A stretch of 64,000 bases of DNA, from the IMG/VR virus record IMGVR_UViG_3300033153_016044, positions 1-64,000 of that record, one strand, 5' to 3'. The notes under the pieces were generated by a model. It was given only the letters and a program-made list of their open reading frames with translations, was not told the origin of the DNA and made no database searches. Of the stretch, positions 1 to 57,597 are shown in pieces; position 1 is the stretch's first letter, and each line of letters starts with the position of its first letter. The stretch comes from a virus. The translations under genes and the position numbers were made by a program.

Positions 1-909
1 CTAAGATTCATTTAAGACCTCATTAATTAGCTCTTCCCAGGATGCCTTGCAGCTATCCCATGTAAATGGAGTAGTAAGCATGTGTTCTCTAGGGGAATAC
101 GTACTACTAAGAACTCTCTGTATTGCATGAGAAAACTTATCTACTGTGTGCTCGCCGTCTATTCTAATTCCCACATCCATATTAAAATGACTTGCTAGCC
201 AACCAGTATGTGTGCCTATGACTGGCCTGTTACATAAGGCTGCTTCAACTGTTGTAAGATGCAGGGTTTCTAGTGGTGAGCACATGATGCAAAAGTCTGA
301 CTCATTGTATAGTCTAACCATTCCCTGTTCGCTAACTCCACCAGGATAGTTTCTTACATTTGGTAGGTTAATTCTATAACCAGCCTTGGATATATAGATG
401 AACTCAATCATAGTGTTGGCTTTAGCTATCTCTTCGAATAACTTAGTATTCTTTGTAGAGTTGTAGTCGCCGACAAATATTCCTATCCTTTTAAACTTAT
501 CAAAGATGTCATTCCTTTGTCTAAAGCTAGCCATGGGCTTGAATAGATTTTGATTCACACCAATAGGGATTGTCCTGACGTGGTCAAACGCCTCGAACTT
601 GTCTCTAGTGAAGTCACTATTAAATACAATGCAATCAGAATTATTACACACATCTAGCTGCTGTTCATCTCTACCATAGTAGTCTTGAACTAATGCAATT
701 TGCTTACATGGTCTATTAATTGTTCTAAAAAACGTTCCATTTCTTATGATTAAAGTGCATTGTCCTGGGTCATTTTCTATTGTCTCAGCCAGCTTATTAA
801 ATGGCGTGCCAGTCTTATCGACTGTGCCATCTATCTCAAGCAGCATGTGCCAGAAGGTCTTAGTGTCAGGTATACAGGTAAGTAGGTCGTTAACTATCCA
901 GATGCTCAT
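1..909 (-). CDS. Glycosyltransferase, GT4/GT-B fold
   Basis: IPIGVNQNLFKP, LYNESDFCIMCSPLETLHLTTVEAALCNRPVI (E-x7-E GT4 motif); TAG stop at 1-3. Confidence 0.8.
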   Translation of the reverse strand: MSIWIVNDLLTCIPDTKTFWHMLLEIDGTVDKTGTPFNKLAETIENDPGQCTLIIRNGTFFRTINRPCKQIALVQDYYGRDEQQLDVCNNSDCIVFNSDFTRDKFEAFDHVRTIPIGVNQNLFKPMASFRQRNDIFDKFKRIGIFVGDYNSTKNTKLFEEIAKANTMIEFIYISKAGYRINLPNVRNYPGGVSEQGMVRLYNESDFCIMCSPLETLHLTTVEAALCNRPVIGTHTGWLASHFNMDVGIRIDGEHTVDKFSHAIQRVLSSTYSPREHMLTTPFTWDSCKASWEELINEVLNES

Positions 910-1519
910 TATTAATCCAAACTGAGTCGTATTGAGTTCCGTGCTGTATTCTAGCTCCCGCTAATTTAAGCATCGTAAACCCTAGGGTCTTTAAGAAATT
1001 ACAAACTCCATCATGTAACATTTTCTGACCAGAGAAGTATGCAACAGTCTCGGTCTCAATGTGCATTATTTTAACTGTATCTAGTAAGTCACCCATGCCC
1101 TCGAAGACATCATAAGTTGCACCCTCTACATCTATCTTCATCATATCAATTGATTCATCTATTATATGTAGGAACTCAGAGTCTAATCTATAGCAGGGAA
1201 CAGTTCTTTGTTCTGTACCATAGATAGAACCTCTATCGTAGATACCGTGAATGCCATTAGTTGTCTTGACGTGAAAGGTTGTCTCTCCAGTATAGGATGA
1301 GATAACTTTATTAAGCCAAGCAATACCACTAGGTGAGTGTGCTTTGTAGTTTTCTTCTAGTCCCTCGTAAGCTACCACTTGAGCGTTAGGAAAACATTGT
1401 TTAAAGTAAACTGAATCTGCACCATCCAGTGCACCAACTTCTACTATAGTTTTGATTTCATCTTCAGAAAATTTGTTCTTTACAATCTGAATAAACTCTT
1501 CCATGCCTATATTAGCCAT
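890..1519 (-). CDS. FkbM-family SAM-dependent methyltransferase
   Basis: IVEVGALDG motif I; IDMMKIDVEGA FkbM signature. Confidence 0.85.
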   Translation of the reverse strand: MANIGMEEFIQIVKNKFSEDEIKTIVEVGALDGADSVYFKQCFPNAQVVAYEGLEENYKAHSPSGIAWLNKVISSYTGETTFHVKTTNGIHGIYDRGSIYGTEQRTVPCYRLDSEFLHIIDESIDMMKIDVEGATYDVFEGMGDLLDTVKIMHIETETVAYFSGQKMLHDGVCNFLKTLGFTMLKLAGARIQHGTQYDSVWINNEHLDS

Positions 1520-2024
1520 TTCGCCAGTCCGCTCCTACTTTTCGTATTACACTAAGGCCATATGGAACAGGAATAGTAAGCAGTTCACAATTATATTTTT
1601 CTTTAATTTCTTTTGTAGCAAGGTAACAGTTTCCACTGTAGCCGGGTTTGGTTTGCTCTTTATTTAGAGGCCACGTATCATGAAGAAGCATTAGTCCCGT
1701 ATCATTTTTTAAATAGGGCCAAAAATTATCAACATCTTTTAAGACTGCCTCCTTGCTGTGGTCTGCATCTATAAACATCAAGTCTATATCCTCATGTATA
1801 TCTTCATTCCATAGCTCAGAAAATTCTTCAGTTGACATGGTATAGATGTTAAAATTCTCACCAGATAACTCATCTGTTTTTGGCTCCAGGTCTACACCAT
1901 ATAACCAATCCTGAACATGTGGCTTTACTTTATTAAACGTACTACAATCATAAGTCCCCAGCTCTACATAAACTTGAGGTTTAGTGTAGGATGCAATAAA
2001 TTCTATAAACTCTTCATGCTTCAT
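1512..2024 (-). CDS. Class I SAM-dependent methyltransferase (Methyltransf_24-like)
   Basis: YVELGTYD, IDLMFIDADHS, GLMLLHD motifs. Confidence 0.8.
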   Translation of the reverse strand: MKHEEFIEFIASYTKPQVYVELGTYDCSTFNKVKPHVQDWLYGVDLEPKTDELSGENFNIYTMSTEEFSELWNEDIHEDIDLMFIDADHSKEAVLKDVDNFWPYLKNDTGLMLLHDTWPLNKEQTKPGYSGNCYLATKEIKEKYNCELLTIPVPYGLSVIRKVGADWRNG

Positions 2025-2194
2025 TCGTATTGCCTATAGTTTTCTTGACAGTATTTCTTAAAGGTATTCATAGTCATCCACTTCTTATCTCCACACACAT
2101 GGCACTCCCAAAAATGTCTTACAGGATTGGAGCACTGCACCATCTTACTTGCTATTATGTAAGTGTGAAACTTACAGGTCTCCGACTTCTGCAC
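2021..2194 (-). CDS. Small Cys/His (zinc-ribbon-like) protein
   Basis: GTG start at 2194 after GGGGAG SD; C-x2-H ... C-x2-C (WECHVCG); ATGA overlap with next gene. Confidence 0.55.
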   Translation of the reverse strand: MQKSETCKFHTYIIASKMVQCSNPVRHFWECHVCGDKKWMTMNTFKKYCQENYRQYE

Positions 2195-2897
2195 TTTCTC
2201 CCCTTTGAAAATGGTAAGCAATGCTATCATTTACCATCACTCTTTTCATACCAAATTTTTGCTCAAGAAGTCCAAAGGTTATCTTATCACCTGGGATACC
2301 TCTCCAGTTCTTTCTCCAGCCTCCTGCTTTGTATAGTATTTCCTTTTTAAATAGGCATGGCATATAAGCTCCAACCCCTTCTACTACACTATCCTCTTTT
2401 ACTGAGTCTGCAAAAGTTTCAAATTCTTCTTTCTTAAAAGACGCTAATGTTTGTCCAAAGTTCTTAGAGATTAACCCTGGTAGGCTAGGCATTCTTTCAC
2501 TCTCAACTAGTCTACATGTAGGAATAAATTGGTCCAGGTTATACTTAGCTAGATTATCTAGCCAGTCATCTGTAAAGGCCATATCACTATTGACAAAGCA
2601 AATTGCTTCTGTCTCACATTCTATTAGGCAACGGTTCCATGCATTGTAAACATTCTGAATCCACCAGTCATCTGGATTATCATTTTTATGAACAACTATT
2701 TTTATTGGAGGGTCATAGTTATGAGATAGATAGGATGAGTATTCACTAGCCTTGATAATTACTTCAGTTGTAGCATCATTACATACTATTAAATAGCTAA
2801 CATTGTGCTCTTTAGAAGGGAAGCTAAGAAGAGACTTCATTACAAAGTCTAGGTATGCTGGACTCTTGTATATTAGTGTGGCTACTGTAATATCCAT
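2172..2897 (-). CDS. Glycosyltransferase, GT2/GT-A fold
   Basis: LIVCND, AWNRCL, FVNSDMAF (DxD-like), WLDNL. Confidence 0.75.
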   Translation of the reverse strand: MDITVATLIYKSPAYLDFVMKSLLSFPSKEHNVSYLIVCNDATTEVIIKASEYSSYLSHNYDPPIKIVVHKNDNPDDWWIQNVYNAWNRCLIECETEAICFVNSDMAFTDDWLDNLAKYNLDQFIPTCRLVESERMPSLPGLISKNFGQTLASFKKEEFETFADSVKEDSVVEGVGAYMPCLFKKEILYKAGGWRKNWRGIPGDKITFGLLEQKFGMKRVMVNDSIAYHFQRGESAEVGDL

Positions 2898-4096
2898 TAG
2901 AAACTCTTCCAGTTCTCTGCTCTGAATGCATTGGTTATTGCACGCCCACCTCTATAGAAGTTATTCTTTAATCTATCTAATAGGTCAGTTACAATAATAT
3001 CTGCGGCATTACCATCACCAAGGGAGAAGTTTGGATTTTTCTTTTGACTAATAACATAATCCGCAGCATGATAAATCTTGTGTGGTTTATCTGTCATTAC
3101 AGTAATTCCGCTCTTGAATGTCTCAGGTCTTTCTGTGCTCCTTCTTAATACAACACATGGAGTTCCAAGTAATGCAGTAGTTTCTTGGTTAGTTCCTGAA
3201 TCAGTGAACTCTATCAGTGCACCCTTTTCTAACATAACAAACTCAAAGAATCCAAGAGGTTTTGTAAATACAAAATTAGTAAGTCCATCACCACCTAGTC
3301 TTTTCTTAAATCTAGATTGTTCCATTAGTAGTTTGAGTCTAGGCATTAGGGGAAGGACAACTGGAATTTCATGACAACTTGCCCACTCGTTTATCTCCAT
3401 CATTAAATCCGCTGACCCTACATGGTCCTTCATTCGTTCATCTCTGTGCATTGTCATTAGTGCAAACTTCTTGTATTGCAAGCTAACTCCATCTTTTAAA
3501 ATGTATGAATCAAGTTCAAAATTTTTCATAGGGTCTACTGGCCAATTAAACCTATCCTTATATTCATCAAGAATATCTACAATAGTATTGCCAGTTACAA
3601 CGATTTTAGTAGGGTCAATCCCCTCCTGCACAAGCTTACACTTATAGTCATGCTGATAAGCATAGAGGACGTCGCTAACTCTATCTATGATTACTCTGTT
3701 GCGCTCCTCTGGCATTCTCCAGTCATGGCTACGCATGCCGGCCTCGACGTGAGCAATAGGAATGCCCATCTTAAGTGGAGTAATACATCCAATGACAGCA
3801 TTGGCATCTCCAAGGAACATAACCACATCTGGCTTACCCTCTTCTATTACTGGCTCAAGTTGACTAATAAGTTTGGAGTGTTGTTGTGGGTGTGAACCAG
3901 CCTTGGTGTCCAGGTTGAATTGTGGCTCTGAGATACCAAGCTCTCTAAAGAAAATCCCCTTGAGGTTCTCATCGTAGTGTTGTCCTGTGTAGACAAACTG
4001 CAGCTCAACCTTAGGGTGTGCTTTAAGTTTCTTAAGTATCAGACTAGAACGTATGAAGTCCGGTCGAATACCAAACACAGTCATGACTTTAAACAC
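2897..4096 (-). CDS. UDP-N-acetylhexosamine 2-epimerase (non-hydrolysing; WecB family, FnlC/QnlB-like)
   Basis: GIRPDFIR, TGQHYD, LGD, HVEAGMRS..MPEERNR, TDSGTNQE, TERPE motifs. Confidence 0.9.
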   Translation of the reverse strand: MFKVMTVFGIRPDFIRSSLILKKLKAHPKVELQFVYTGQHYDENLKGIFFRELGISEPQFNLDTKAGSHPQQHSKLISQLEPVIEEGKPDVVMFLGDANAVIGCITPLKMGIPIAHVEAGMRSHDWRMPEERNRVIIDRVSDVLYAYQHDYKCKLVQEGIDPTKIVVTGNTIVDILDEYKDRFNWPVDPMKNFELDSYILKDGVSLQYKKFALMTMHRDERMKDHVGSADLMMEINEWASCHEIPVVLPLMPRLKLLMEQSRFKKRLGGDGLTNFVFTKPLGFFEFVMLEKGALIEFTDSGTNQETTALLGTPCVVLRRSTERPETFKSGITVMTDKPHKIYHAADYVISQKKNPNFSLGDGNAADIIVTDLLDRLKNNFYRGGRAITNAFRAENWKSF

Positions 4097-31567: not shown

Positions 31568-31601
31568 ACCTCTACTTATAGTATACGCGTACATTATTGT
31601 T
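31568..31601 (-). promoter_or_regulatory. Conserved phage promoter-like element, copy A
   Basis: AACAATAATGTACGCGTATACTATAAGTAGAGGT; 28/34 identical to the copy at 33799-33832. Confidence 0.7.
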
Positions 31602-33352: not shown

Positions 33353-33764
33353 CGAGCTTCTCAAACAGTCCTTTCTTCCTAATAGAAAAACGAGGCTCAC
33401 GAAGGTCCACGACCTCACGAGTCTCGTTCTTTATTTCAGAAGTGTCTTTGGGTTGAGCTAGCCTAGAGTCCCTAGCCGATTCCTTTTGTAGGAAAAATTC
33501 TAACTGTGCGTAATCTGTAAAGGTATTAATTTGAACATTGTTAGCCACTGTCACAACAGCCTTAGGTCCATAGTTCTTAAGGAACTTTGACACTGCTCTA
33601 ACTTCTTTTGTATACAGGCCCTTCCAATACTTGTGTCTCCAAAAATATGGACGTAGACTAGTTAGTCCATACTGTCTTACTAGCATTAGTTCTGCTATGT
33701 AGGACCTGAGTTGCATTTTATGACCATCTGTGGTTTGAGATAACACTTTAATTTTCTTAGGCAC
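33336..33764 (-). CDS. Hypothetical protein
   Basis: GGAG SD + GTG; first gene after the promoter-like element. Confidence 0.7.
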   Translation of the reverse strand: MPKKIKVLSQTTDGHKMQLRSYIAELMLVRQYGLTSLRPYFWRHKYWKGLYTKEVRAVSKFLKNYGPKAVVTVANNVQINTFTDYAQLEFFLQKESARDSRLAQPKDTSEIKNETREVVDLREPRFSIRKKGLFEKLDEFER

Positions 33765-33798
33765 TAGTACTTCTCCAATCTCTTTACTATAACTACTA

Positions 33799-33832
33799 AC
33801 CTCTACTAGTATGATACGCGTAATTTATTGTT
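33799..33832 (-). promoter_or_regulatory. Conserved phage promoter-like element, copy B
   Basis: AACAATAAATTACGCGTATCATACTAGTAGAGGT at the tail/replication module boundary. Confidence 0.7.
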
Positions 33833-33838
33833 TGTATG

Positions 33839-34114
33839 TTACTTTATCAAAAGCCTTCCAAGAAATGCGCCATGCTCTGGTGTAAACGGAACTACATAGA
33901 GTACCGTATTTCCCTTAGACATATCATGATTTCTAACTGCGTTAATCTTTATCCTTGTAACATCTCTATATTCTTCTGTTTCTTTTGCTTCTTGTCTAAT
34001 TCTAACTAGTGTAGCTTTTTTCATTCTTTGTTCATCACATGTTAGATAGTATTGTGGTTGCCCAACTGACAACTTATTTTTAGGTTGTCATCTTTTTCTT
34101 GGTTTAATATTCAT
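33839..34114 (-). CDS. Small basic protein with in-frame TGA at codon 9 (possible recoding or pseudogene)
   Basis: GAGGA SD, ATG directly after the upstream TAA; MNIKPRKR*QPKNKLSVGQPQ... in frame with the 77-aa track ORF. Confidence 0.55.
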
Positions 34115-35917
34115 TTATTCCTCATTCGCGGCGCATGGTCCGGTATCTTCGTAATCTGGTTCAGAGTTATTACCGCCACCACAACCAACTCCAATATTAA
34201 GTTCTGTATCAGGAGCATTAGAACAAGGAGCTTTGATTTTAACAGGAACACACTGGTCGCAATCAAACTCATTAAGTTTTTGTACGGTTATTGTAGAACC
34301 TGTGGGCTTAGGAACAGCAGGGGGCGAAATCGTTGGTATTGATGATTCACCTCCTATACCATCAATAGATGTCTCACATTCACAAGCAGCAAGAGCTGCA
34401 TTAATCTGTTGAACTAATATAATAAGGTCTGTTCCATGAGTAACTGCAATAGCAACGAGTGCTGCATTAATAGAAGCAGTTAGTCCAGCAAAAGCAGCAT
34501 TAATACTGACTGCAAGCTTTGATGCTGCTCCAACAGCACCACCAATTCCACCAACTAAAGCAGCATTATTACCATCTTGTCTACCTTTTAAATCTTCAGA
34601 GTAACTACTAATCTCAGTACATAAGCCATCTAATCTCATGATGGTATTTATATCATTAGTAACTAAAGTTTCACAGGCTCCAGCAATCAAAGAGCACTCA
34701 TCTATTGCAACAGCAGGCACCCATTCACATGGGGGTTTCTCTTCTGCTTCTCCAATCTCTCCTGGGTCATCATCGCAAGTAGGCAGTTCTTCGTCCATAA
34801 AGACCATCTCTCCAATGAACAATTTAGGCTTAGTTTTTAATGACGATGAATCACAACAAATTTCATCTCCTAAATCTGACAGACTTCTTCCGAACTTTAT
34901 AGGTCCGTCTATTTCGTTTTCTTTCCAGAAGTGAACAGTGCTTCTAATATCTATACCGATACTATCTCCTGTGGTTTCACCACCTAGGATATTTTCTTCT
35001 CCCTTTTTGTGACATGAATCATCCTCTTCAGATGCTTCCTTATGGGGAATAACAAAGACAGTTTTTAATTTAGCAGAACCATCTGTTTCTTCATCGAAAA
35101 AACTATGTTCTAAATGAGTCATTATTTCTGCTGTTTTCTGACCTTCTAGTTTTCCATTAGTCCCGTTAAGAGCAGTAGGTTGGCGAACCCACCATACATC
35201 TTCTAGCTTACCCTTTAGCCAAGGGAACCCTTCTCCTGCATCAGGATTAGTACTGAAGACAGTTGTTCCCAGCCCCTTGCTTTCGTGGTCAACGATAATA
35301 TCATTCCAAGCACCCCATACATTACGTCTTTCATCCCATCTTAAATCAACAGTTCCTACTTTCCATTGTGCTCTATCTAATTTTGCATCCTCTTCATTCT
35401 TTCTTGCATCATCAGCAGAGGGAAATAACGGCAACATGTCCTTTGTTCTACCGTAGCCCTGCGCCATCATAGGCGTTCTCATGCAGAGACCTCTGATATT
35501 AAATAGCTCACCGAAGGTACCAATCCGTGTTCTGGCAGTCTCTATATCGTCTCCACTAACTACATACTGAACTTGTTGTTGTTTCTTGGGGACAGGCACG
35601 AGTTCAGGACTAGGTTCTACTGGCGCCCATATATTGTCTGTATTTGTATTTGGAAATGCGGAAGCATATATTCCTTGAACCGTTATTGTACTCATGGCAT
35701 TTACAATCTTAAATCCATCTACTATAGATAGAAATGAATCCAAGGATGCACCATACGTATCTGACCATTTAGTCTCTAGCGTTCCTGGAGTATTTAGATT
35801 TATAATCATCGGTGCGTCTACGCCTTGCTCTAAGGCCCAGTCGGAACCGGCTATCGCGTATCCTGCTCTGGGTAAATTAATACCGAGCAGCTCATCTATA
35901 TTTTTTTGTTCTGACAT
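34115..35917 (-). CDS. Putative tail-tip/virion protein, acidic and Cys-rich
   Basis: Position after tape measure; Ala/Gly hydrophobic segment with INAA repeats. Confidence 0.55.
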   Translation of the reverse strand: MSEQKNIDELLGINLPRAGYAIAGSDWALEQGVDAPMIINLNTPGTLETKWSDTYGASLDSFLSIVDGFKIVNAMSTITVQGIYASAFPNTNTDNIWAPVEPSPELVPVPKKQQQVQYVVSGDDIETARTRIGTFGELFNIRGLCMRTPMMAQGYGRTKDMLPLFPSADDARKNEEDAKLDRAQWKVGTVDLRWDERRNVWGAWNDIIVDHESKGLGTTVFSTNPDAGEGFPWLKGKLEDVWWVRQPTALNGTNGKLEGQKTAEIMTHLEHSFFDEETDGSAKLKTVFVIPHKEASEEDDSCHKKGEENILGGETTGDSIGIDIRSTVHFWKENEIDGPIKFGRSLSDLGDEICCDSSSLKTKPKLFIGEMVFMDEELPTCDDDPGEIGEAEEKPPCEWVPAVAIDECSLIAGACETLVTNDINTIMRLDGLCTEISSYSEDLKGRQDGNNAALVGGIGGAVGAASKLAVSINAAFAGLTASINAALVAIAVTHGTDLIILVQQINAALAACECETSIDGIGGESSIPTISPPAVPKPTGSTITVQKLNEFDCDQCVPVKIKAPCSNAPDTELNIGVGCGGGNNSEPDYEDTGPCAANEE

Positions 35918-56435: not shown

Positions 56436-57569
56436 TTAGCTGAATGTGCTATGAGTAATAGTCAAATCGTTGAAGTTACTATAGTTGTAAGTAACTGTCA
56501 TGTTACCTCCACCAGCTTCACCACCAGCCATGTCAACAGACTGCAGGCGGTTCTTGGTGCCAAGGTTAATGTTCAGCCCCTCACACAAGCAAACAATGAT
56601 TTCTTCATTGACCGTGTTGTTGGTTCTATTACAATCCAAATCCTCAAAAGCGACAGCATCAATGAAGTCACCCTGAGACGTCACAACTTCAACAGAAGTG
56701 GTTACCTCAAGAGGGAATGTAACGAACTTAGTGAATGGTCTCTTCTTGCCAAGCTCGAAGATATCCTCACGACCAAGGTCGCTAGAGATTGTAATGGTCT
56801 GAATGTGCTCAACAATACCAGCCAGTGTTCCAGACGAACTAACGCCAGGAATCTGAGTAGGTAGTCTAGAACAATCTAGGTCAAAGCTCTCACGTCTCTG
56901 AACACCGGAACCAATAACCTGAGCATCCTCTAGGTTCTGGAACTGAAGTCCACCGGGGAAGCCCACGGGAGTAGCAGCATCAGATGCGCCCTCAGCAGGC
57001 AGTGCATCAGCAGCGCCAGTAACACCTTCGTAATCAGCCCAAATCTTATCGTTACCTACCAGAGTAATAGACTCTGTGAAGTTACCATCGACTGGGAAGG
57101 TATAGTTGACGGAACTAATGAACATTCCGGAACCAAGAACCATCGAGATTGGGTTTCCAGAAGCTCTAGTCTGCGTATCAGAATAGATGCTAATTGCGAC
57201 GTCAGTCTGGTAATCAGCAGTTCTATCTGTTAGTAGAGTAGTTCCTCGCTCAGTAGCCATGAACCAAAGAGGTTTCGTTCCATCAAGAACCTTCTCAACG
57301 GTAACCTCAATCTCAGGCTCTGCTTCAATGAACTCATAAATCTCCAACTGACCAAGCTCAAACACTTGCTCAAAGTTGAATGTAGTAGTCATACCAACAG
57401 ACTGTGCTCCACGAGCAACTTCCCAAAGGGGCTGGTTTCTGACTCCCGTAATTTCTACGTCTACGCCAGGCTGGATAACCACAACTTCGTTAGTTGGGTC
57501 GGCTCCACCACCTGCGTTATTTTTAAAGGCCACACTGTGTATGGCATAGAAAACTCTTTGATTTGGAAT
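56436..57569 (-). CDS. Probable major tail tube protein; apparent ATT start
   Basis: AQSVGMTTTFNFEQVFELGQLEIY and duplicated REDIFELG; followed by terminator; GGAG-N8-ATT CCA AAT CAA. Confidence 0.7.
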   Translation of the reverse strand: MPNQRVFYAIHSVAFKNNAGGGADPTNEVVVIQPGVDVEITGVRNQPLWEVARGAQSVGMTTTFNFEQVFELGQLEIYEFIEAEPEIEVTVEKVLDGTKPLWFMATERGTTLLTDRTADYQTDVAISIYSDTQTRASGNPISMVLGSGMFISSVNYTFPVDGNFTESITLVGNDKIWADYEGVTGAADALPAEGASDAATPVGFPGGLQFQNLEDAQVIGSGVQRRESFDLDCSRLPTQIPGVSSSGTLAGIVEHIQTITISSDLGREDIFELGKKRPFTKFVTFPLEVTTSVEVVTSQGDFIDAVAFEDLDCNRTNNTVNEEIIVCLCEGLNINLGTKNRLQSVDMAGGEAGGGNMTVTYNYSNFNDLTITHSTFS

Positions 57570-57597
57570 TTAATCTTCTCCATTGGTAGCTAAGGAA

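Follow-up and report, generated by a model that had tools for sequence, protein, structure and literature searches.

Genomic context of the small gene

The stretch of DNA analyzed here, which we call the window, is the first 64 kb (positions 1 to 64,000) of a 97.7-kb IMG/VR record, IMGVR_UViG_3300033153_016044. The record is 62% complete, with a G+C content of 42%, and is classified as a provirus. Large terminase, portal, and major head genes at 64 to 84 kb of the record mark the virus as a tailed phage, and its terminase shares only approximately 26% identity with the terminases of Bacillus siphophages and of a Microcystis phage. Nearly all of the genes are on the minus strand, most have strong AGGAG-type ribosome-binding sites, and most start with ATG. 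A Shine-Dalgarno (SD) sequence of the GGAG, GAGG, or AGGA type precedes 53 of 101 candidate minus-strand open reading frames (ORFs). TAA is the commonest stop codon, and TGA closes about a fifth of the genes. TGA functions as a normal stop elsewhere in this phage, as the original prediction had held, ending 19 minus-strand ORFs of at least 100 amino acids, several of them as ATGA overlaps.

Very large tail-fibre-like genes form a block, and the small gene that is the subject of this analysis sits at its end. Its 5′ neighbor, likewise at the end of that block, is a Cys-rich gene of 600 amino acids (34115 to 35917, minus strand) whose protein had no Pfam or PHROG match. On the other side of the small gene lies a conserved intergenic element, and beyond that element come, in order, a gene encoding 142 amino acids, MazG, and a UvsX-like recombinase.

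Organization of the small gene

The features described in this section are all on the minus strand. The SD sequence GAGGA (34119 to 34123) lies within the last codons of the 600-amino-acid gene, 4 nt before an ATG (34114 to 34112) that directly follows the TAA stop of that gene (34117 to 34115). The ATG and seven further codons encode MNIKPRKR and are followed, as codon 9, by an in-frame TGA (34090 to 34088), so that the leader and its stop together occupy 34088 to 34114. Both the SD sequence and its spacing before the leader ATG match those of the phage's other genes. Past the TGA, the frame is open for 82 codons. An A-rich spacer of 15 nt (34073 to 34087), or five codons encoding QPKNK, leads to the TTG that is annotated as the start of the gene (34070 to 34072), and the body of the gene (33839 to 34072) comprises 77 codons from that TTG and belongs to an ORFan family of 72 to 107 amino acids. 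Counted from the ATG, the small gene specifies 91 residues (92 codons with the stop). The original prediction had described the SD sequence, the TAA, the ATG, the TGA at codon 9, and the 82 open codons, and all are present on the minus strand; its statement that the TTG start at 34072 has no SD sequence was also borne out.

A 17-nt hairpin (34057 to 34073) begins 14 nt past the UGA and spans the TTG and the S-V-G-Q codons that follow it. Its arms, GUUGUC and GGCAAC, form 6 bp around the loop AGUUG, with a calculated energy of −4.9 kcal/mol. Positions 34090 to 34084 can instead pair with 34073 to 34067, and this alternative 7-bp stem (34067 to 34090), which takes in the UGA itself, excludes the 17-nt hairpin.

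An SD-bearing ATG followed by a short ORF, a stop of any kind, and an in-frame open frame of at least 60 codons occurs only at this place in the 97.7-kb record, and the arrangement therefore does not reflect genome-wide recoding. Reassignment of TGA throughout the genome was ruled out, there being a single in-frame case while TGA ends about a fifth of the genes. Frameshifting and bypassing were also ruled out: the body is in the zero frame, and there is no conserved slippery site and no matched pair of take-off and landing codons.

A family of small metagenomic proteins

No Pfam or PHROG family matched the small protein when it and its neighbors were searched, and a phage collection searched by both DNA and protein gave no match. 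Exhaustive HMMER and profile searches yielded about 17 homologues of 47 to 107 amino acids, all of them metagenomic and none of them named. They share a core that starts with a nearly invariant Cys and continues with two basic helices and a beta hairpin. An AlphaFold2 model of the small protein (pLDDT of 83) has residues 1 to 20 disordered, helices at 26 to 46 and 50 to 61, and a beta hairpin. No meaningful match to the fold emerged from Foldseek (PDB and BFVD), VIA-align wide, or the ESM Atlas; a generic helical hairpin ranked highest, with a Z score of 5.3.

The homologues fall into two groups. Members of the first have ordinary Met starts and long, variable N-terminal tails in which the SVGQ/SGGQ motif is absent. 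Those of the second start exactly at the position of the window's TTG with the sequence M/L/V-S-V/G-G-Q; at least seven database homologues begin at the equivalent codon. The original prediction had named homologues that start downstream of the TGA as an observation that would refute it, and several of the database proteins, beginning with MSVG or MSGG, formally do just that. However, every homologue whose DNA was read has the same upstream ATG and TGA. The SVGQ/SGGQ starts in the database are, judged from the DNA, evidently a gene-calling artefact.

Conservation of the in-frame TGA at syntenic loci

One metagenome scan and one viral scan gave three loci syntenic with the window, designated L002, L003, and L006. 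The viral contigs were scanned with the small protein, with the homologue P0014, with alignment A3, and with an alignment of the 600-amino-acid protein, and these gave just one relative contig; the genome contigs that were scanned gave no match. The DNA comparison is thus one of four sequences, the window, L006, L002, and L003, two of which are close relatives. All three loci have the 600-amino-acid gene, the small gene, and the 142-amino-acid gene in the same order. The 600-amino-acid gene is syntenic across the four sequences with 45 to 78% identity, and the 142-amino-acid gene is 80 to 85% identical. A single reading frame runs through the 600-amino-acid gene, the leader, and the small gene at all four loci.

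The relatives share a general layout of an ATG, one to seven codons, a TGA, four or five codons, and a hairpin over x-S-V/G-G-Q codons. L006 has GAGGAG, TAA, ATG, seven codons (MNNKLRKK), TGA, five codons, and TTG. In L002, AGGAG and ATG are followed by four codons (MPRRR), TGA, five codons, and CTG, and in L003 a weak SD sequence and ATG are followed by one codon (MG), TGA, four codons, and ACG. The leader thus runs to 8, 8, 5, and 2 codons in the window, L006, L002, and L003, respectively, and its sequence is not conserved. The spacer from the TGA to the candidate start is 15, 15, 15, and 12 nt, always a multiple of 3, with one indel of 3 nt. Its third codon, AAA, is invariant in the four loci, and the residues following the TGA are R-D-K-K in both L006 and L003, the Arg being encoded synonymously by CGA in one and AGA in the other.

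Amid this variation, the TGA column is invariant in all four loci, while the adjoining codons on both sides vary in nearly every locus. Between clades, synonymous differences are saturated (pS of 0.72 to 0.89), and the window and L006 are separated by a dS of 0.77. Purifying selection acts on the body of the gene, where dN/dS is 0.2 to 0.37 among the four loci. The free-standing stops of neighboring orthologues in the same genomes have switched between TAA and TAG in three or four of six genes, whereas the in-frame stop of the small gene is TGA at every one of the four loci and never TAA or TAG. With the TGA invariant at saturated synonymous divergence, the site is neither a sequencing error nor a nonsense mutation, the two possibilities that the original prediction had left standing, nor is the gene a pseudogene. 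On this comparative evidence, we take the conserved early UGA to be a deliberate translational signal and not damage.

The codon at the position of the window's TTG is itself variable, being TTG in the window and L006, CTG in L002, and ACG in L003. Between the TGA and an ATG inside helix 1, neither L002 nor L003 has an ATG, GTG, or TTG, and as a result the gene caller could predict only a 47-amino-acid stump, P0017, in L003. The literal first residues given in four JGI entries, two of which share a cluster with Prodigal-style entries that begin with M, are L in the window (TTG), L in P0014, and V in both P0004 and P0019. If L is read as TTG and V as GTG, by extension from the window's case, then the candidate start codon in the seven known cases is TTG three times, GTG twice, CTG once, and ACG once, and in none of them is it ATG. 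A start-capable codon stands at this position in about 9 of the 12 members of the clade with SVGQ/SGGQ starts.

Hairpin and alternative stem

The hairpin reported in the original prediction, with a loop about 20 nt downstream of the UGA, is present, and its placement agrees with the spacing rule for bacterial selenocysteine insertion sequence (SECIS) elements. In the window alone, it is no better than chance. The coding strand contains 1,667 TGA trinucleotides, of which 14% are followed by a hairpin of 5 bp or more that starts 12 to 16 nt downstream; in 5.6%, such a hairpin also has a G within the first two loop positions. The local folding energy at the window site is at the 16th percentile, with folding z-scores of −0.10 (116 nt) and −1.9 (56 nt). 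A search of Rfam over positions 33500 to 34500 found no SECIS family and one snoRNA match at chance level.

Across the loci, a hairpin with a core of 4 to 6 bp occurs in the same register in four of four cases. The arms are GUUGUC/GGCAAC in the window, UUGUC/GACAG in L006, CUGUC/GACAG in L002, and GUCC/GGAC in L003, giving stems of 6, 5, 5, and 4 bp, respectively, of which that in L002 can be extended to 8 bp. In the same order, the loops are AGUUG, AGUUG, GGUCG, and GGC, the distances from the UGA to the loop are 20, 20, 20, and 18 nt, and the energies are −4.9, −2.5, −9.0, and −2.5 kcal/mol. Paired cells make up 79% of the alignment, versus 25 to 46% when the partner strand is slid. There is one compensatory pair, from U-A to C-G, and covariation over the four sequences was indistinguishable from that of shuffles. 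Four core pairs are dictated by the codons for [L/V/M]-S-x-G-Q, which makes the hairpin and the conserved peptide inseparable on four sequences.

The second structural claim of the original prediction, that a mutually exclusive stem buries the UGA as a switch, fared less well. The alternative stem does form, and it is the minimum-energy fold in the window and L006, but it is absent in the same register from L002 and L003, and a conserved switch stem was thereby ruled out. On the plus strand, the inverted repeat at 34067 to 34090 is followed by a T-rich run and has a terminator-like score. A terminator at this site was ruled out, the sole match being on the antisense strand and at chance level (1 found versus 0.5 expected); since the pairing is weaker in L006, the antisense repeat is probably incidental.

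The UGA as a candidate leaky stop

The reading that we favor, at a probability of about 40%, is in-frame decoding: the UGA would be a conserved stop, leaky by design, through which a small late gene of the phage is gated. Ribosomes would load at the GAGGA-ATG abutting the stop of the 600-amino-acid gene and translate 2 to 8 unimportant, mostly basic codons before meeting the UGA, where most of them would terminate. In a small fraction, an ordinary near-cognate tRNA would read the UGA, and translation would proceed in frame to yield the full 91-residue protein, with the annotated TTG (34072) more probably serving as an internal codon for Leu. Expression of the gene would thereby be tied to the structural operon but lowered by one or two orders of magnitude. 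Decoding of the UGA, the tRNA involved, and the purpose are what we infer from a layout, a conservation, and an in-frame continuity that are plain in the DNA.

The evidence for in-frame decoding begins with the UGA itself, which is invariant across four syntenic loci at saturated divergence and is always TGA while the stops of neighboring genes switch between TAA and TAG. The leader has an SD sequence and an ATG context equal to those of the phage's bona fide genes. The spacer has tolerated only a 3-nt indel, and R-D-K-K has been kept in L006 and L003 across a synonymous change. A restart would have to use TTG, TTG, CTG, and ACG at the four loci, canonical start codons being missing from L002 and L003. 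An independent start for the downstream part is therefore lacking in L002 (CTG) and L003 (ACG), although not in the window and L006 (TTG) or in several of the database homologues. Against in-frame decoding, the leader is unconserved and in L003 is merely M-G behind a weak SD sequence; an upstream product of this kind would have no function, unlike that in the classic readthrough systems. The base following the UGA also varies (C, C, G, and A in the four loci). Finally, the hairpin begins 14 to 15 nt past the UGA across the loci, too distant to touch a ribosome paused on the stop, and readthrough leaves it unexplained.

The alternative that survives best is termination followed by restart, which we regard as possible, if less so than a leaky stop. 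The leader would be a mini-ORF that delivers ribosomes from its SD-bearing ATG; they would stop at the UGA and restart 12 to 15 nt farther on at an SD-less TTG, GTG, or CTG. That start codon would form part of the 5′ arm of the hairpin, which would block independent initiation, and the product would have 77 amino acids beginning with M-S-V-G-Q. Such a relay asks nothing of the leader, whose length (8, 8, 5, and 2 codons) and sequence are indeed unconstrained, and the stop-to-start distances of 15, 15, 15, and 12 nt fit reinitiation. The spacer ahead of the candidate restart codon is A-rich, the hairpin spans that codon, and stop and start are paired with each other in the alternative stem of the window and L006. 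At least seven database homologues begin at the candidate restart codon, and residues 1 to 20 lie outside the fold in the AlphaFold2 model. At the TTG position, the 9 or so of 12 clade members noted above carry a codon that can serve as a start, and in L002 a GAGGAG lies 11 nt upstream of the CTG; together these make restart feasible in most members.

The restart codon, however, would be CTG in L002 and ACG in L003, where no other ATG, GTG, or TTG precedes the conserved Cys, and it would be ATG in none of the seven cases. A restart also needs neither a leader and body in a shared frame, as found at all loci, nor a stop that is TGA rather than TAA, as found without exception at saturated divergence. 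The candidate start that is never ATG in seven cases and the in-frame spacing lead us to favor decoding of the UGA over restart. The two could also operate together.

Selenocysteine

The original prediction had offered selenocysteine or programmed readthrough at this UGA. The programmed part is upheld by a TGA that is invariant in four loci at saturated sites, but for selenocysteine the lack of a Cys counterpart, the weak hairpin, and the variable loop tell against it, and we judge it unlikely. Under that proposal, the hairpin 14 to 15 nt downstream would guide the host's SelB and tRNA-Sec to decode the UGA, and the gene would encode a small phage selenoprotein whose selenocysteine lies in a flexible N-terminal tail, 14 to 17 residues before the conserved Cys and able to reach it.

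Several features of the locus are as one would expect of such a gene. The window, L006, L002, and L003 all keep the UGA without change. The bacterial SECIS model calls for a loop of 3 to 9 nt, an upper stem of 4 to 16 bp, a G in the first two loop positions, a UGA-to-loop distance of 16 to 37 nt, and an energy of −7.5 kcal/mol or lower (PMC13188914). Four of four loci agree with the geometric rules (i to iii), with loops of 3 to 5 nt, an early loop G, and a spacing of 18 to 20 nt; comparable geometry is found at 5.6% of random TGAs in the same genome. The codons for SVGQ/SGGQ that form the hairpin are confined to the clade whose database entries start with this motif, and the UGA is present in all four of its members with readable DNA. 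At its distance from the UGA, the hairpin would also be better placed to act through a tethered factor than to touch the ribosome directly.

The evidence on the other side weighs more. In three of the four loci, including the window, the hairpin is weaker than the energy limit of −7.5 kcal/mol, and only that of L002 is stronger. The loop is not conserved (AGUUG, GGUCG, and GGC), the GU is lost in the SGGQ subclade, and the core pairs are largely dictated by the S-x-G-Q codons. Published screens for selenoproteins require Cys homologues, at least two of them (PMC1088965). When the homologues with ordinary starts (P0002, P0003, P0006, P0008, P0009, and P0011) were compared, none had a Cys at or near the site or anywhere ahead of the conserved domain Cys, a coarse test in that the tails align poorly. 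The alignment at codon 9 that the original prediction had suggested as a check thus gave a TGA conserved in four of four DNA loci and no Cys homologue. Upstream of the UGA there are merely 2 to 8 unconserved codons, the conserved coding sequence being on the downstream side only, and the AlphaFold2 model places the site in a disordered basic tail with no redox motif. No tRNA-Sec, SelA, or SelB was found on the two phage records, which combine to approximately 123 kb and are 62% (the window's) and 41% (that of L006) complete. Our literature search found no described phage selenoprotein, nor is there one in the 2026 review of the prokaryotic selenoproteome, in which phages and viruses go unmentioned (PMC13188914).

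Suppression and sequence damage

Slimmer still is the chance that the UGA is a gate that depends on suppression, closed until late infection brings a UGA-suppressor tRNA or a drop in RF2 activity. The small gene would then be a single-gene counterpart of the stop-codon recoding switches described in some large phages. A UGA that is both conserved and specific, in a small gene that closes a late structural block, would suit such a gate; the relative's record carries a tRNA cluster, and the two phage records are incomplete, at 62% and 41%. The four tRNAs of that cluster, however, are Glu-TTC, Thr-TGT, Arg-TCT, and Ile-TAT, none a suppressor, and no tRNA gene was found in the window's own record. 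The in-frame TGA is confined to one gene, and TGA closes about a fifth of the genes.

A sequencing error, a recent nonsense mutation, or a decaying pseudogene, as an ORFan gene with a single, early TGA might suggest, is highly improbable: four assemblies made independently from different samples share the TGA at saturated synonymous divergence, all four loci have an intact body with dN/dS values of 0.2 to 0.37, and a dS of at least 0.77 means that the loci are not one recent clone. This explanation is effectively refuted.

Comparison with known systems

The prototype of programmed UGA readthrough is the coat/A1 gene of the RNA phage Qbeta, in which the coat protein is the main product and the extension adds a domain. 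The arrangement proposed here from sequence would resemble it in having a leaky UGA, an in-frame continuation, a longer product made in the minority, and a conserved stop identity. It differs in that the genome is DNA and the upstream product is an unconserved peptide of 2 to 8 residues. With so short and unconserved a product, the stop would act purely as an attenuator, unlike that in Qbeta.

In bacterial selenoprotein genes, with Escherichia coli fdhF as the prototype, there is likewise a conserved in-frame UGA with a small hairpin in the coding sequence, here 18 to 20 nt on and with an early loop G. Unlike those genes, the present one has no Cys homologues, scant coding sequence upstream, a hairpin that is too weak in three of four loci, a variable loop, and no redox context.

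Translational coupling by termination and reinitiation is known from genes V and VII of the filamentous phage f1. As in such coupled cistrons (overlapping gene pairs are surveyed in PMC6728339) and in short leader cistrons, an SD-bearing ORF here ends a few nucleotides before an SD-less candidate start that would depend on upstream translation. The present locus departs from coupled cistrons in that its downstream "start" is never ATG and in two of four loci is CTG or ACG, its leader and body share one frame throughout, and its stop is always UGA, 12 to 15 nt from the start with no overlap.

If the UGA is decoded, then a DNA phage uses a leaky stop near the 5′ end purely as an expression gate, a form of recoding that is uncatalogued for phages. 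Gene callers hide such cases, either by placing the start after the stop or by leaving a stump such as P0017. If ribosomes instead restart at non-AUG codons, then the locus is a compact natural relay with a leader cistron, which would be useful but not surprising.

Other features of the phage records

The tRNA genes of the relative's record lie at positions 260 to 3602 of that record (L031, 260 to 1709, and L033, 1501 to 1573), in a region that corresponds to sequence beyond the left end of the window's record. AGA, the codon read by Arg-TCT, immediately precedes the UGA in the window and L002. Toward the other end of the window's record (87,000 to 97,729), the G+C content rises from approximately 41% to 50 to 54%, with a shift in gene orientation and start-codon usage. 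A flank of host DNA, an island, or a chimeric assembly joined to the phage could each account for this region; a family search of it gave a weak HATPase_c match as its sole result and nothing informative on the host.

A second odd start is found near a tail gene of 365 amino acids. At 57534 to 57582 of the window (minus strand), an in-frame TAA is directly followed by an ATT, with a GGAG 8 nt ahead of the ATT, and this arrangement lies upstream of the annotated GTG of that gene. This observation bears on whether the host tolerates non-AUG initiation.

The conserved intergenic element just 3′ of the small gene's TAA (33799 to 33838, minus strand) contains a palindromic core, TACGCGTA. The same core is found at about 5237 to 5260 in L002, about 4468 to 4500 in L003, and about 1424 to 1460 in L006, and conservation of the element among the four loci exceeds that of the flanking coding sequence. 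A scan of other DNA with the intergenic motif gave mostly chance matches. Within the window, a second copy of TACGCGTA precedes the next operon (31583 to 31598), making two matches versus 0.1 expected, and the element is probably a class of phage promoter or operator.
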